A DNA stretch of 64,000 nucleotides from Alphaproteobacteria bacterium. Lineage in GTDB: Bacteria; Pseudomonadota; Alphaproteobacteria; Rs-D84. Below the pieces are notes generated by a model. It saw nothing but the letters and a program-made list of their open reading frames with translations, did not search any database and was not told where the DNA came from. Location: NCBI GenBank assembly GCA_017935245.1, contig JAGBHZ010000011.1:17919-81918 (forward strand), given 5' to 3'. Shown here piece after piece: positions 5,011 through 63,905 of the stretch (position 1 is its first letter; the number at the start of each line of letters is the position of its first letter). The position numbers were made by a program, and so were the translations under genes.

Positions 5011-6345
5011 ATGACAGACTTTGTATTAAAAGACGAAATTTTCTTTCATGGTACACGGGCGCGTTTTGAACGGTTTCGCCCGTTGTCGCACTTTGGCTCG
5101 TGGGAAGCCGCCACAGACATCCTGGCCAGTTCAAGCACAATAAAAAAAGAAAAACTGGATGGATTAACCGAAATAAAAAACCCAAACAAAACACCCAAAA
5201 CAATCATCCCCGACAGTATTATTATTTCGGCAAAACTAAATATTCATAACACGTATGAAATCCAAGATTTTGCATCATGTCATGACCTGAAATCATACAA
5301 TGGGTTTGTATTACGTCATATCGCGCACGATCTAAAAATTAATGGAACGCCAAAATTTTTTGACTATATTTTTTCAGAACCGTTTAAAATGCCTTACCAA
5401 GACGTTCAAAACAATTTGCGCAATGAAAATCTCTATACGCCAGAATTCGAAGAAATAGACCGATATCATTTATCGTTCCAGCGTGTAATTCAATACTTTG
5501 AATCATTGGGATATGACGGATTTCACTACGTCAATCAATACGAAGATCGTGGACATATTTCATACATTGTATTTCGACCAGAAAATATTATTCGCACAGA
5601 TATTAAGACAGAACACTTCACACAAAAACCACAATCGACATTTGTCCCGGAATTAATACCAATTAGAAAACAAACAAGTGAAGAAATCGTCCGACTGCAT
5701 TGTGAAAACATAAACCATGACGATTTGTTTGAACAAAAGGTTAATCGGATAAAAAGCCAAATCCCACCCGAACATGCAGACAAGATTAAGGCACACTATG
5801 CCAAAATATTCTATAATGACATATGGCCAAAATTAAAACGCGTTTCCAGACAATCTATTGACGCCCACGGTTTGACACACACCGAACAAACCGTATTACA
5901 CGGCATTGATATTGCAATTGTGTGCGCACATGATCCGTTACCGGTAATATTGGCGTGCGTGTTACATGACACCTTTTGGACCGACAACAAAAAAAACGCC
6001 ATACCATTTGCAAAAAAATTTATTAGTGAAAACTATCCACGATTACACCGCAACACGGTCGAAGAAATCATTGGTGCAATCAGACATATTGACGACAATG
6101 AAATTGCAAGACATGATTTAACCGCGGCATGCATGTGGGACGCAAAACGAGTTCACATGGCATGGAACGGACAATACAAAATGGTTAAATTATATTGTTC
6201 GACATCGGTTGGACGCCAAATGGCAGAACTGGGGGCAGATGCCCAGGCGCAATATATTCAAATCCAAGATGAATTTTTGGTCCGCCACGGATTAAAGTTT
6301 CCAAAACAAATCACCACACACACAATGAACCAGAAATATCGATAG
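5011..6345 (+). CDS. Hypothetical two-domain protein: N-terminal ART-like (ADP-ribosyltransferase-fold?) region plus C-terminal HD-domain phosphohydrolase-like region
   Basis: I chose the start at MTDFVLKDE (5011) because the upstream part of the 522-aa track ORF overlaps marR and the promoter. N-terminal motifs: FFHGTRARF, SHFGSWEAA, GYDGFHYVNQYEDRGHISYIVFRPENI. C-terminal motifs: GLTHTEQTVLHGIDIAIV ... PVILACVLHDTFW (H...HD). Confidence 0.6.
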   Translation: MTDFVLKDEIFFHGTRARFERFRPLSHFGSWEAATDILASSSTIKKEKLDGLTEIKNPNKTPKTIIPDSIIISAKLNIHNTYEIQDFASCHDLKSYNGFVLRHIAHDLKINGTPKFFDYIFSEPFKMPYQDVQNNLRNENLYTPEFEEIDRYHLSFQRVIQYFESLGYDGFHYVNQYEDRGHISYIVFRPENIIRTDIKTEHFTQKPQSTFVPELIPIRKQTSEEIVRLHCENINHDDLFEQKVNRIKSQIPPEHADKIKAHYAKIFYNDIWPKLKRVSRQSIDAHGLTHTEQTVLHGIDIAIVCAHDPLPVILACVLHDTFWTDNKKNAIPFAKKFISENYPRLHRNTVEEIIGAIRHIDDNEIARHDLTAACMWDAKRVHMAWNGQYKMVKLYCSTSVGRQMAELGADAQAQYIQIQDEFLVRHGLKFPKQITTHTMNQKYR

Positions 6346-6400
6346 AATTAATTTTATTCCTTGCAAAAAGTATAAAGATAGATATAATTCATGTCGCAAT

Positions 6401-6474
6401 TGGGGTGTCGTCTAATGGTAGGACAAGAGATTTTGGTTCTCTTTATCATGGTTCGAATCCGTGCGCCCCAACCA
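6401..6474 (+). tRNA. tRNA-Gln (anticodon UUG)
   Basis: Cloverleaf folded by hand. Acceptor TGGGGTG/CGCCCCA with U1:A72, anticodon arm AGAGA-TTTTGGT-TCTCT, T arm ATGGTTCGAATCCGT, encoded CCA. Confidence 0.85.
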
Positions 6475-7917: not shown

Positions 7918-7991
7918 GGCAGCCCCAACGGGAATCGAACCCGTGTCGTCAGAATGAGAATCTGATGTCCTGACCGCTAGACGATGGGGCC
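7917..7991 (-). tRNA. tRNA-Glu (anticodon CUC)
   Basis: The reverse complement reads GGCCCCATCGTCTAGCGGTCAGGACATCAGATTCTCATTCTGACGACACGGGTTCGATTCCCGTTGGGGCTGCCA. Anticodon loop is TTCTCAT. Glu-type D arm. Confidence 0.85.
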
Positions 7992-19770: not shown

Positions 19771-19796
19771 AAAATTCCCCGAACGGGGGATTTTTT
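19771..19796 (+). terminator. Intrinsic terminator after dnaQ
   Basis: AAAAATTCCCCgaacGGGGGATTTTTT. Confidence 0.75.
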
Positions 19797-19938: not shown

Positions 19939-19961
19939 AAACTTTTATTTACCTAAGTATT
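19939..19961 (+). promoter_or_regulatory. Conserved upstream box AAACTTTTATTTACCTAAGTATT (copy 1 of 3)
   Basis: Near-identical 23-mers at 25852-25874 and 60148-60170. Abuts the -35 box. Confidence 0.6.
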
Positions 19962-19988
19962 GAACAAAGAAAAAAACTTGGTTATAAT
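19960..19988 (+). promoter_or_regulatory. Promoter TTGAAC-17-TATAAT of cysteine-rich cassette copy 1
   Basis: Spacing counted by hand. Same layout as 60170-60198. Confidence 0.65.
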
Positions 19989-19995
19989 GTATGTG

Positions 19996-20242
19996 TTATG
20001 ACGATTTGTCATAATGGGGTGTGAGAACCCGAGTTAGTATCGGAATACATACCATTGGCGCACATGTTGCGTTGGGTGTAGTTTGATAAAAGAAAAACTC
20101 CTGAACCAAATACGTCAGGAGGGTCGTGGAATAACAAATACACGGCACAATTCTAACTATTGTTCTCAACCTCCTGACCACTCGAATTTATTCGGTGGTT
20201 TTTGTTTTTTCGCGAATAAAACAAAAGAAAGGAGTTGAACAG
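19996..20242 (+). promoter_or_regulatory. Conserved structured 5' leader RNA (candidate riboswitch or attenuator), copy 1
   Basis: Shares ordered blocks with 60206-60424: P1 hairpin, AUGGGGUGU..AACCC, ACUCCUGA / GUCAGGAGG / CCUCCUGAC, ACAAT-loop-ATTGT, terminator, then AAGGAG. Confidence 0.55.
20177..20210 (+). terminator. Intrinsic terminator inside leader copy 1
   Basis: ACCAC(T)CGAAtttaTTCGGTGGT followed by TTTTGTTTTTT, 33 nt upstream of the ATG. Confidence 0.65.
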
Positions 20243-20710
20243 ATGAAAAAACTTTTAATCTTAACCGCGGTTGGCGCAATGCTTGCCGTGCCCGCAATGG
20301 CGGTGCAAAAGTGTGTGGCGTTGGATGGCTATAACACCATGTGTGATGTAGATGAGTTAGAGTATGGAAATAGCGAATTTAAGGCATCGTGTGGTACATA
20401 TGGTACTGGGGTTACTATACCTGTTAGAGGGATTGGAATATGCTCAAATACTAGTGGCAGTGTACATGGCTCGACGTCCGACACACTGGTAACAGTTAGT
20501 AGTGTGTCTGATAGCCAAAATGTTAATTGTTGGTGTAAAATAATTAGCCCAATCATGTCGCCATGGGTGTCCAGTTACAGCTATTCGTCGGCCAGTGAAT
20601 GTGCATACAAATGTGCTTACGGTTGTGCATTTGGACTGGGTTATGTTGTAGATGATGAAGAAGATTTGGTCAGATTCTTTACTGCAATATTTTCCAATCT
20701 ATCTGACTAA
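20243..20710 (+). CDS. Secreted cysteine-rich protein A, copy 1 (155 aa)
   Basis: AAGGAG Shine-Dalgarno and signal peptide MKKLLILTAVGAMLAVPAMA. The mature protein has 9 Cys, including NCWC. Paralog at 60425-60862. Confidence 0.7.
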   Translation: MKKLLILTAVGAMLAVPAMAVQKCVALDGYNTMCDVDELEYGNSEFKASCGTYGTGVTIPVRGIGICSNTSGSVHGSTSDTLVTVSSVSDSQNVNCWCKIISPIMSPWVSSYSYSSASECAYKCAYGCAFGLGYVVDDEEDLVRFFTAIFSNLSD

Positions 20711-20721
20711 AGGGCGTCATC

Positions 20722-20994
20722 ATGAAACGAATAATATTTTTATTGGTATGTGTGCCGATTGTCGCGCATGCCGCTGCGCCGAGTGTCAGTTGCCCATCGG
20801 GATATATCGCAATTGATTCGCCATATATCACAATTGCGACATCATGTCCGTCGGGTACGGTATCCGTTGGTACGGCGGAATCATGCCTGGTGTCCAGCCC
20901 ATCGGGGGATTGTATAATGTATGCACCGGCGGGGGTATCTTACACCGATGACAGTGGCACATACGAATTTACCGACGCGTGTCCAATGAACTAA
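20722..20994 (+). CDS. Secreted cysteine-rich protein B, copy 1 (90 aa)
   Basis: Signal peptide MKRIIFLLVCVPIVAHA and repeated CPSG motifs. About 80 percent identical by hand alignment to 60877-61149. Confidence 0.7.
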   Translation: MKRIIFLLVCVPIVAHAAAPSVSCPSGYIAIDSPYITIATSCPSGTVSVGTAESCLVSSPSGDCIMYAPAGVSYTDDSGTYEFTDACPMN

Positions 20995-21022
20995 AAAAAA
21001 TCCCCCAAACGGGGGATTTTTT
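20995..21022. terminator. Bidirectional terminator shared by cassette copy 1 and ppdK
   Basis: AAAAAAATCCCCCaaacGGGGGATTTTTT. Overlaps the ppdK stop codon. Confidence 0.75.
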
Positions 21023-60087: not shown

Positions 60088-60114
60088 AAAATCCCCCAAA
60101 TGGGGGATTTTTTT
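60088..60114 (+). terminator. Terminator after pal
   Basis: AAAATCCCCCaaatGGGGGATTTTTTT. Confidence 0.75.
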
Positions 60115-60147: not shown

Positions 60148-60170
60148 TAAACTTTTATTTATCTTAGCAT
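60148..60170 (+). promoter_or_regulatory. Conserved upstream box AAACTTTTATTTATCTTAGCATT (copy 3 of 3)
   Basis: Abuts the -35 box, as in copy 1. Confidence 0.6.
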
Positions 60171-60198
60171 TTGCACAAATATAAACAATCCGTTATAA
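60170..60198 (+). promoter_or_regulatory. Promoter TTGCAC-17-TATAAT of cysteine-rich cassette copy 2
   Basis: Spacing counted by hand. Confidence 0.65.
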
Positions 60199-60205
60199 TA
60201 TACGT

Positions 60206-60424
60206 GTTATGGTGATTTACCATAATGGGGTGTAGTAACCCGTACTAATAGCGTCCAAATTGTTTGGATGAACATAGACTCCTGAATATAAACGTCAGGA
60301 GGGTTGCGAATATATTGAATAAGCACACAATTCTATTAGATTGTTACTAACCTCCTGACCACTCGAAAGTTTTCGGTGGTTTTTGTTTTTTCGCGAATAA
60401 AACAAAAGAAAGGGAGTGATACAG
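60206..60424 (+). promoter_or_regulatory. Conserved structured 5' leader RNA, copy 2
   Basis: Same block order as 19996-20242. The P1 stem carries compensatory changes. Confidence 0.55.
60358..60391 (+). terminator. Intrinsic terminator inside leader copy 2
   Basis: ACCAC(T)CGAAagttTTCGGTGGT followed by TTTTGTTTTTT. Confidence 0.65.
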
Positions 60425-60862
60425 ATGAAAAAACTTTTAACTTTGGTTATGCTTTCTGCGATGCTTGCCATGCCCGCATTTGCAGTCCAAAAATGCGTGG
60501 CGTTGAATAGCAGTATGACAACATGTACCAAGTCTAGTAATGAAACATATAGTATTGAGTGGTCAGCCAACTGTACAACAAATGGTGCCAGTTTATCTGT
60601 CAAGGGTGTCGGCATATGTGCCAGTAATTCGGCAAGCAGTGTTGGTGCAGAAGGGCGTACCGCAACATTGGTAGACGATTCTACGCAACATGTTAATTGT
60701 TGGTGTCGACTGGTAAGTCCGGTGTTATCAACATGGCGTTTTAGTCATACTGCACCATACGCTGGACATTGTTCGGAAAATTGTGCAAATACTTGTGCCA
60801 GTATTCTCGCAACAAATTCAGATTTTAGAAGCAAAATATTATCTTATGGTTTGTCAGATTAA
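60425..60862 (+). CDS. Secreted cysteine-rich protein A, copy 2 (145 aa)
   Basis: Signal peptide MKKLLTLVMLSAMLAMPAFA. Nine Cys in the mature protein, NCWC motif, C-terminal LSD as in copy 1. Confidence 0.7.
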   Translation: MKKLLTLVMLSAMLAMPAFAVQKCVALNSSMTTCTKSSNETYSIEWSANCTTNGASLSVKGVGICASNSASSVGAEGRTATLVDDSTQHVNCWCRLVSPVLSTWRFSHTAPYAGHCSENCANTCASILATNSDFRSKILSYGLSD

Positions 60863-60876
60863 AAAAGGGTCGTGGC

Positions 60877-61149
60877 ATGAAACGAATAATAATTTTATTG
60901 GCGTGTGTGCCGTTACTTGCACATGCCGCCGCGCCATCAACAACATGCCCATCGGGTTATGTTACAATTAATAGCCCAAACATAACCATTGCGACAACGT
61001 GCCCCAGTGGTTATATATCCATTGGCACGGCGGAATCGTGTTTGGTGGAAAGTCCATCGGGGAATTGCATAATGTATGCGCCGGCAGGTGTTGATTATAC
61101 AGATGATACGGGGACATATGAATTTACCGATGCGTGTCCAATGTCGTAA
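60877..61149 (+). CDS. Secreted cysteine-rich protein B, copy 2 (90 aa)
   Basis: MKRIIILLACVPLLAHA, CPSGY repeats, and GTYEFTDACPM shared with copy 1. Confidence 0.7.
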   Translation: MKRIIILLACVPLLAHAAAPSTTCPSGYVTINSPNITIATTCPSGYISIGTAESCLVESPSGNCIMYAPAGVDYTDDTGTYEFTDACPMS

Positions 61150-63831: not shown

Positions 63832-63905
63832 GGCTTGGTGGCAGAGTGGTTATGCAGAGGACTGCAAATCCTTGGATGCCGGTTCGATTCCGACCCAAGC
63901 CTCCA
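63832..63905 (+). tRNA. tRNA-Cys (anticodon GCA)
   Basis: GGCTTGG acceptor stem, anticodon loop CTGCAAA, T loop TTCGATT, encoded CCA. One C-A mismatch in the T stem. Confidence 0.8.

Follow-up and report, generated by a model that had tools for sequence, protein, structure and literature searches.

The locus under study raises the question of what a long and apparently structured RNA leader does between a promoter and the gene that follows it. It lies at positions 19,939-20,242 of a 64,000-nucleotide stretch of alphaproteobacterial DNA (GenBank assembly GCA_017935245.1, contig JAGBHZ010000011.1; GTDB order Rs-D84), the whole of which is called the window here, and a first-pass annotation made from the letters alone had described it, together with a second copy at 60,148-60,424, as a candidate novel cis-regulator. 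Our analysis confirms that both copies (A and B) are members of a family of at least 100 distinct sequences from Candidatus Enterousia (order Rs-D84) and related gut Alphaproteobacteria. Judged from its sequences, this family is a real, strongly supported and previously uncatalogued cis-regulatory RNA, which may have been detected before, unnamed, in microbiome catalogues. We give a probability of about 60% to the reading that each leader is a conditional transcription attenuator, terminated by default, with a probable secondary control of the ribosome-binding site and an effector that most likely stabilises the terminated conformation (state I, below). For a cis-regulator of this kind, "candidate" stays the right word.

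The same ordered elements are present at both loci, as first described, with copy B (60149-60425) repeating the order of copy A, and the first hairpin differs between the copies by two compensated pairs (AC/GT vs GT/AC). A conserved 17-mer (CCTCCTGACCACTCGAA) occurs exactly twice in the window, where 0.05 occurrences are expected, and folding of the leader beat that of shuffled controls in both copies (z = -4.9 and -3.7). A covariance model run with its filters off recovered both copies from the window, at 160 and 162 bits, and no other, the hit ranked third scoring 11 bits. Chance or plain duplication was ruled out as the source of this resemblance, because the leader blocks are near-identical while the gene 1 proteins are only 41% identical (79% for the gene 2 proteins), and because the family is large and covarying. 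A mobile or viral origin was also rejected, since no similarity was found in phage/plasmid collections and no match to the family pattern in viral contigs.

The elements of both copies, with the names used below, are the following.

19939-19952, + strand: AT-rich box AAACTTTTATTTAC of copy A, 5' of the -35 element
19960-19988, + strand: promoter of copy A, TTGAAC-17 nt-TATAAT (10/12 matches)
19995-20015, + strand: 5'-terminal hairpin P0 of copy A, GTTATGAC/GTCATAAT in DNA and GUUAUGAC / GUCAUAAU in RNA
20016-20031, + strand: G1-N16 of copy A, GGGGUGU GAGA AC CCG (DNA block GGGGTGT..AACCC, 20016-20030), which supplies the 5' strand of the long-range helix P1 and has as local alternative the hairpin Pa (G2-G4 with C13-Y15)
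20032-20037, + strand: X strand AGUUAG of copy A, 5' strand of the hypervariable helix P1b, with its partner at 20153-20158
20038-20088, + strand: hairpin P2 of copy A, 51 nt long vs 19 nt in copy B
20097-20104, + strand: box A of copy A, ACUCCUGA (DNA ACTCCTGA), forming P3 with box B
20114-20123, + strand: box B of copy A, GUCAGGAGGG (DNA GTCAGGAGGG), which resembles a ribosome-binding site and has box A or box C as partner
20124-20145, + strand: hairpin P4 of copy A, with a conserved A/U-rich loop
20146-20163, + strand: P5 stem region of copy A, CACAAU-U-CUAACU-AUUGU (DNA ACAAT..ATTGT, 20147-20163), with the 3' strand of P1b as its loop (20153-20158)
20164-20168, + strand: UCUCA of copy A, 3' strand of H1 (the hypervariable part of P1), with U7-N11 (20022-20026) as partner
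20169-20178, + strand: box C of copy A, ACCUCCUGAC, with G1-G4, box B, the terminator 3' strand (for its last 3 nt) and the ribosome-binding site as candidate partners
20170-20186, + strand: conserved 17-mer CCTCCTGACCACTCGAA of copy A (RNA block CCUCCUGACCACUCGAA)
20176-20200, + strand: bulged intrinsic terminator of copy A, GACCACUCGAA-UUUA-UUCGGUGGUU, -10.3 kcal/mol, U tract to 20210
20228-20245, + strand: ribosome-binding site AAAGGAG (20228-20234) and gene 1 ATG (20243) of copy A
20243-20994, + strand: two-gene operon of copy A, gene 1 at 20243-20710 (155 aa) and gene 2 at 20722-20994 (90 aa)
60149-60199, + strand: AT-rich box (60149-60162) and promoter TTGCAC-17 nt-TATAAT (60171-60199) of copy B
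60206-60226, + strand: P0 of copy B, GUUAUGGU / ACCAUAAU
60227-60251, + strand: G1-N16 of copy B (GGGGUGU AGUA AC CCG), UA linker and X strand CUAAUAG (60245-60251)
60252-60270, + strand: P2 of copy B
60278-60303, + strand: box A (60278-60285) and box B (60294-60303) of copy B
60304-60349, + strand: P4 (60304-60325), P5 with loop CUAUUAG (60326-60344) and H1 3' strand UACUA (60345-60349) of copy B
60350-60391, + strand: box C (60350-60359), terminator hairpin (60357-60381) and U tract (to 60391) of copy B
60409-61149, + strand: ribosome-binding site, gene 1 (60425-60862) and gene 2 (60877-61149) of copy B

Three pairings in these leaders had been overlooked in the first-pass annotation. The loops of the ACAAT hairpin, which had been listed merely as different between copies, are complementary to the segment directly after AACCC; the four variable bases after GGGGTGT pair with the four bases after ATTGT; and GTCAGGAGG has two possible partners, ACTCCTGA or CCTCCTGAC.

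Relatives of the leader were collected from two sides. Homologs of the 90-aa gene 2 protein were found at 19 loci of gut metagenome-assembled genomes, assigned to Candidatus Enterousia or to "Alphaproteobacteria bacterium", and nhmmer placed the leader upstream of 16 of them. Scanning of metagenome contigs (human-gut and other JGI/ENA) with a degenerate pattern that runs from box B to box C gave 88 further stretches. At E <= 1e-3, a covariance model of 194 positions and 30 base pairs (R1) matched 107 copies in the collected sequence, 100 of them distinct. The search for more copies and more covariation, proposed together with the initial description, was strongly positive. The bias of the collection pattern does not touch the 16 loci anchored on the protein or the 6 extra hits of the model, and these agree with the rest of the family. 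Copy numbers are high, with at least 12 in the human-gut assembly ORMR01 (coverage ~41; genome of ~1 Mb) and at least 6 in genome SIG48. Paralogs of the operon with no detectable leader were found at three loci (L001, L010 and L011), and therefore the leader is not obligatory for every paralog; at L010, a rearranged or duplicated gene 1 fragment was observed together with an inserted open reading frame (ORF).

Around a folded leader of ~200 nt, family members have a common layout of own promoter, 5' hairpin, core of 130-200 nt, intrinsic terminator, ribosome-binding site and gene. The -10 element is an exact TATAAT in 56 of 94 members, and it ends 6 nt before the first G of P0 in 70 of 94. After P0 come G1 R2 G3 G4 U5 G6 U7 N8-N11 A12 C13 C14 Y15 N16, an X strand of 6-8 hypervariable nt and the P2 hairpin, whose length is very variable. 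An A-rich linker leads to box A (CUCCUGA or CUCCAAC), which is followed by a short loop and box B (GUCAGGAGG or GGUUGGAGG). Downstream of box B are P4 with its conserved A/U-rich loop, CACAAU, 1-2 nt, the loop strand Lp and AUUGU; then NNNN, box C (AACCUCC plus UGAC or AACC; CCUCCUGAC), the terminator, the ribosome-binding site and the ORF. The AT-rich box just 5' of the -35 element (19939-19952 and 60149-60162, AAACTTTTATTTA(C/T)) was rejected as a feature of the family, since only the Enterousia clade and locus L018 conserve it; it could serve as an UP element or as a site where a protein binds in that clade.

That the leader is structured and under selection for pairing, as had been supposed from two copies, is supported by the 107 model hits and by very strong covariation. 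In the 100 distinct sequences, standard pairs were observed in 95.5-96.1% of the cells, vs ~73% (72.9%) in shuffled controls and 33-51% when partners were slid. Double changes occurred in 28-31 pairs, up to 31 of 38, and the covariation score was 0.63 vs 0.20 in shuffled and 0.05-0.10 in slid controls. The alignment used for these counts (A5) was fitted to the nested structure, towards which the counts lean. A MAFFT alignment not fitted to structure showed the same covariation picture, and RNAalifold independently predicted P0, P1, P1b, P2, P3 and P4. In an alignment-independent test, which like the MAFFT alignment is without the structure-fitting bias of A5, the own strands of each sequence were compared with strands from other sequences. 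The four bases of H1 (N8-N11 with NNNN) formed four of four pairs in 65 of 68 cognate sets vs 2% of the non-cognate ones, with 20 different tetramers represented. For P1b (X with Lp), a complementary run of at least 6 was found in 63 of 68 cognate and 8% of non-cognate sets, and 56 different loops were present.

Single helices showed the same behaviour. In P0, 98.8% of the cells pair and double changes are seen in seven of eight pairs. P1, in which G1-C13 (with G6 bulged) pair with GU-NNNN-AACCUC, comprises 12 bp and pairs in 98.2% of the cells; the base of P2 covaries, and P4 has double changes in all five counted pairs. Box A with box B (P3) pairs in 99.6% of the cells, with double changes in five of seven pairs, and the competing helix of box B with box C (9 bp) pairs in 97.5%. 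In 68 of 68 sequences, the variable ends of the three boxes (A, B and C) are in step, GUCA going with UGAC or UGGC, and GGUU with AACC or AGCC. The middle pair of P5 (ACAAU with AUUGU) is A-U in 83 sequences and U-A in 17, with none unpaired. In Pa, the R2:Y15 pair is G-C in 58, G-U in 21, A-U in 18 and U-A in 1, again with none unpaired; A2 is always accompanied by U15, and G3:C14 and G4:C13 each become A-U twice. At locus L045 (1042-1195), which was found by the model and not by the pattern, four substitutions coincide: A for G4, U for C13, U for the first C of box C, and A for the G of box B that pairs with it. This four-position change satisfies 4:13 (Pa), 4:box C (the base of P1) and B:C at once, as the strand-exchange model predicts. 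Altogether, the sequences support both alternative helix sets, A:B and B:C, by their patterns of substitution.

The geometry of the core allows another interpretation. Linkers of 2 nt (U5 G6) in Pa, of 1-2 nt on the 5' side of Lp and of 0 nt on its 3' side would permit Pa with H1, and P5 with P1b, to form a double pseudoknot. In this respect the leader resembles SAM-II, preQ1-II, glmS, HDV-like and twister RNAs: the Pa and P5 loops are almost fully complementary to distant strands, and linkers of 1-2 nt on one side and 0 nt on the other correspond to deep-groove crossing geometry. It differs from them in showing no sequence similarity, and the coexistence of hairpin and long-range helix is here only a possibility. 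A self-cleaving ribozyme whose double-pseudoknot core processes the 5' untranslated region would fit these linkers and the few, invariant conserved nucleotides of the core, but there is no match to any Rfam 15 ribozyme family, and neither the tight coupling to a terminator nor three mutually exclusive helices are features of ribozymes; we regard it as very improbable.

An intrinsic terminator between promoter and ORF, as first described for the locus, was borne out in the family. With a terminator defined as a hairpin of -6 kcal/mol or better directly after box C and at least 5 T in the next 8 positions, 93 of 99 members carry one, and it overlaps an alternative helix. The bulged stem is missed by a simple terminator scanner and was located with a purpose-made hairpin search. 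It begins 6-9 nt into AACCUCC..., that is, inside box C, so that GAC, AACC or CAACC belong both to it and to the B:C helix; at the end of its 3' strand stands GGUU(G), as at the 5' end of box B. No promoter-like site was found between terminator and ATG in either window copy. In the window, downstream of the U tract comes an A-rich run that is complementary to it (UUUUGUUUU / AAAACAAAA; 20199-20227 and 60380-60408), with the palindrome TTCGCGAA (20209-20216 and 60390-60397) at the centre of the pair, and a second hairpin is predicted in the read-through RNA. Similar pairs of U tract and A tract are present in many family members. At L013 (3402-3500), an extra hairpin with a T run lies between the leader terminator and the ribosome-binding site, resulting in tandem terminator-like elements.

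From these overlaps a switch can be proposed, in which each leader would decide whether transcription from its own promoter reaches the genes for surface or secreted proteins downstream. In state I, which we take as the default with genes off, the 5' end (G1-C13) would pair with GU-NNNN-AACCUC near the 3' end as P1, and the X strand with the loop between ACAAU and AUUGU as P1b. Together these helices would close a junction carrying P2, P3 (box A:box B) and P4. The 3' part of box C would then be free to complete the terminator, and the polymerase would halt at the U tract (~20210 and ~60391). In state II, with genes on, box B would exchange box A for box C (9 bp), G2-G4 would fold back onto C13-Y15 as Pa, and ACAAU would pair with AUUGU as P5. 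The foot of the terminator would lose 3-5 base pairs and box C would be kept off the ribosome-binding site, allowing read-through and translation. A putative effector, for which the conserved and pseudoknot-prone core would be the recognition site, would set the balance between both states. If terminator-coupled riboswitches are a guide, it would most likely stabilise state I, making the leader an OFF switch. A second, more speculative role may be assigned to the hypervariable long-range helices, which could serve as "address codes" of each locus against domain swapping in trans between nascent leaders.

The calculated energies, in which pseudoknots are ignored, bear on this switch in several ways. 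From box A to the terminator, the energy of the B:C state minus that of the A:B state is +1.7 ± 2.2 kcal/mol (n=66), indicating that the local states are nearly isoenergetic. Before the 3' strand of the terminator is made, the difference between states is 8.9 kcal/mol on average (1-4 in the window copies). All four minimum-energy folds of read-through RNA have box C paired with the ribosome-binding site, and complementarity of at least 5 nt between these two elements was found in 69% of subtype 1 and 47% of subtype 2 members, vs 26% and 14% of control ribosome-binding-site regions. Sequestration of the ribosome-binding site by box C is therefore suggestive only, since the predicted pairing is enriched over controls and not universal.

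It has to be noted that several results weigh against a conditional attenuator of this kind, or against a small molecule as its trigger. Over the whole leader, the state I helices are more stable than those of state II by 15 ± 9 kcal/mol (6-9 in the window copies), and therefore state II needs kinetic control or an effector. The overlap between B:C and terminator amounts to only 3-5 nt, and forcing B:C in the window copies only trims the lowest three base pairs of the terminator. Judging by the linker lengths, Pa and P5 may form alongside H1 and P1b as the double pseudoknot described above, and not as a separate state. The A:B and B:C covariation stems from a small number of independent events, namely one main split into subtypes, the changes in L038 and L045, and wobble changes, and the invariance of AACCUCC, the P5 stem and part of box B is partly built in, because the collection pattern fixed them. 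Finally, the gene context is coherent (adhesins, Cys-rich secreted proteins, Flg_new repeats, small helix-turn-helix proteins) and suggests no metabolite; to have one gene class follow every copy would be less usual for metabolite riboswitches than for leaders specific to a protein or regulon.

The thermodynamic dominance of state I could also mean that nothing is switched at all. A constitutive, structured 5' untranslated region, or a stand-alone small RNA, would combine a leaky terminator with a B:C pairing of no regulatory role, its fold stabilising the mRNA or acting in trans after termination. Own promoter and strong terminator are indeed the anatomy of a small-RNA gene, and a 5'-terminal hairpin such as P0 is a classic mRNA stabiliser. 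On the contrary, the element has a fixed position and orientation 5' of an ORF, usually with ~50-75 nt from box C to the start codon and no promoter between, whereas a small-RNA gene would be placed independently of the downstream ORF. The joint changes of boxes A, B and C, among them those at four positions of L045, would be difficult to account for if a single pairing mattered, and the local states are nearly isoenergetic across 66 members. We consider a constitutive leader or small RNA improbable.

The closest parallel to a conditional attenuator is offered by terminator-coupled riboswitches such as the purine, TPP and lysine OFF switches. In common with these the leader has the order of promoter, structured sensor, terminator, ribosome-binding site and ORF, a long-range P1 that closes a multi-helix junction, a P1 3' end (here box C) that also takes part in the antiterminator, an antiterminator overlapping the terminator, and alternative local states that are nearly isoenergetic. 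A conserved, structured sensor domain with covariation is present, as in riboswitches, and mutually exclusive pairings of terminator and antiterminator are found in silico only. The leader differs in that it matches none of the 4227 Rfam 15 models in sequence or structure and its ligand is putative, in that the other strand of the antiterminator (box B) is itself a sensor arm (P3), in the short terminator overlap, and in preceding genes for surface and secreted proteins instead of transport or biosynthesis. Overlapping A:B (anti-antiterminator), B:C (antiterminator) and C:D (terminator) pairings are also shared with the 1:2/2:3/3:4 scheme of trp-type leader-peptide attenuators; here A is a copy of C, and D repeats the 5' end of B. 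In contrast to these attenuators, the leader has a large conserved structured domain upstream of the toggle, its P2 varies freely in length, and it contains no conserved leader ORF, the ORF lists of the two window copies being different. A leader-peptide attenuator was rejected because the two window leaders have no ORF in common, and because insertions of differing length, in P2 as well as in the loops, disrupt any reading frame.

Genes downstream of the family form one functional class. Where the collected sequence extends downstream, box C is usually followed at a distance of ~50-75 nt by a same-strand ORF with a ribosome-binding site (in 87 of 100 cases within ~130 nt), and most of these ORFs encode proteins with a signal peptide. 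Genes 1 and 2 of the copy A operon (20243-20994) code for Cys-rich proteins with signal peptides. Two Cys-rich secreted families were distinguished, with the motifs CWC..P..W..C..C..C and CPSGY..CPSG..SCL..TDxxGTYEF..C, each of which also serves as C-terminal module in larger surface proteins that carry Listeria-Bacteroides (Flg_new) repeats; these observations come from both window operons (20243-20994 and 60425-61149) and from loci L041, L082, L054, L020, L068, L029 and L044. One leader precedes a gene for a YadA-anchor adhesin. At four loci (L018 at 2470-2827 on the minus strand, L033, L030 and L072) the leader stands before a small helix-turn-helix, XRE-like ORF of 47-110 aa, which may encode a transcription factor of the same regulon; in the two such ORFs that were scanned (L018 and L072) scores were below the Pfam thresholds. 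Neither Pfam nor NCBIfam had a family for the window proteins, all 19 clusters of their homologs are annotated as hypothetical, and the AlphaFold model of gene 1 (predicted local distance difference test score, pLDDT, 80) gave no fold match in the PDB (best E = 1).

This single-class regulon favours an effector acting in trans, that is, the same RNA switch operated by a protein or small RNA. In such a scheme, a dedicated RNA-binding antiterminator or a specialised NusG-type factor would bind the core or box A and free box B for box C, switching on the whole surface-protein regulon. Copies preceding one functional gene class are typical of regulon-specific antitermination. Furthermore, the invariant GGAGG and CUCC blocks mimic the duplex of ribosome-binding site and 16S rRNA, offering a possible protein or ribosome target, and an A-rich single strand precedes box A. 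Protein-dependent antitermination systems (LoaP leader hairpins, BglG/SacY RAT, ANTAR targets, RfaH ops) likewise use terminator leaders to gate surface, secreted or specialised operons and reuse one element across a regulon. However, what those systems recognise is short, either one or two small hairpins or a DNA element of 12 nt. The leader has no consensus of this type, and no cognate protein came to light; the core of the leader exceeds 130 nt and has at least six helices with long-range or pseudoknot pairings, more like an aptamer. No candidate factor was identified in these genomes, and those of Enterousia and order Rs-D84 measure 0.75-1.0 Mb, have few regulators and lack the tricarboxylic acid cycle and respiration (PMC12306168). 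A trans-acting protein or small RNA seems to us rather unlikely; as effector of the proposed attenuator, we somewhat prefer a small molecule or ion to a protein.

The most far-reaching form of the attenuator model is a new riboswitch class, in which a sensor of a small molecule or second messenger with an unseen fold, present in a dozen or more copies, would control essentially the whole repertoire of adhesins and secreted proteins. We put this forward as a tentative and somewhat doubtful proposal. GEMM-I (c-di-GMP-I, RF01051) is a precedent, occurring in many copies per genome and often before genes for adhesins, pili, secreted and surface proteins. The present leader shares with it the kind of regulon and the copy-number pattern (at least 12 copies in one ~1 Mb genome), but GEMM-I has a two-hairpin fold with a tetraloop-receptor contact, vs P0-P5 and two hypervariable long-range helices here. 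Neither c-di-GMP-I (RF01051) nor c-di-GMP-II (RF01786) was matched by cmscan on the window leaders or on 14 relatives.

The first-pass annotation had recognised no known riboswitch class in the core, and cmscan with the 4227 models of Rfam 15 agrees, matching neither leader. At gathering score, only three tRNAs were found in the whole window; at E <= 10, both leaders gave noise, the best score being 26 bits vs a gathering score of 60 for a Drosophila snoRNA model. In 14 diverse relatives, no match fell on the leaders. Literature on Enterousia, on Rs-D84 and on strings of the core sequence yielded no description of the RNA element. Keywords in the main text of a catalogue of structured RNAs from the human microbiome (PMC8040213) returned nothing, its unnamed candidates lying outside this comparison. 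The principle of the terminator switch is already known; the fold and the regulon are new.

If confirmed, the leader would add a large new RNA to the riboswitch-like orphans, one with unusually good support, at least 100 distinct members and every helix covarying, and the sequence evidence for both conformations strengthens it as an orphan candidate. The host is an uncultured lineage (order Rs-D84, Candidatus Enterousia) with less than 1 Mb of genome and a presumed dependence on other cells. The leader would define a regulon of surface and secreted proteins for interaction with the surroundings and would give a handle on the signal that is monitored. Should the new riboswitch class prove true, one RNA would serve as master switch for contact with host or partner in an organism with almost no protein regulators. 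For studies of RNA folding, the leader would provide a clear natural strand-exchange switch, each G-rich or C-rich block being partnered in both folds.

Other elements were observed around the leaders. Near-identical GC hairpins (TCCCC-N5-GGGGGA) with T runs flank the leader-operon units at 19776-19790, 21001-21015 and 60092-60106; they can be read on both strands and are probably bidirectional terminators of neighbouring genes. The three tRNA genes of the window lie at 6401-6471 (+), 7920-7991 (-) and 63832-63902 (+). At locus L018, a two-piece alphaproteobacterial transfer-messenger RNA was found at 6059-6439 (-), which fits the taxonomic assignment.

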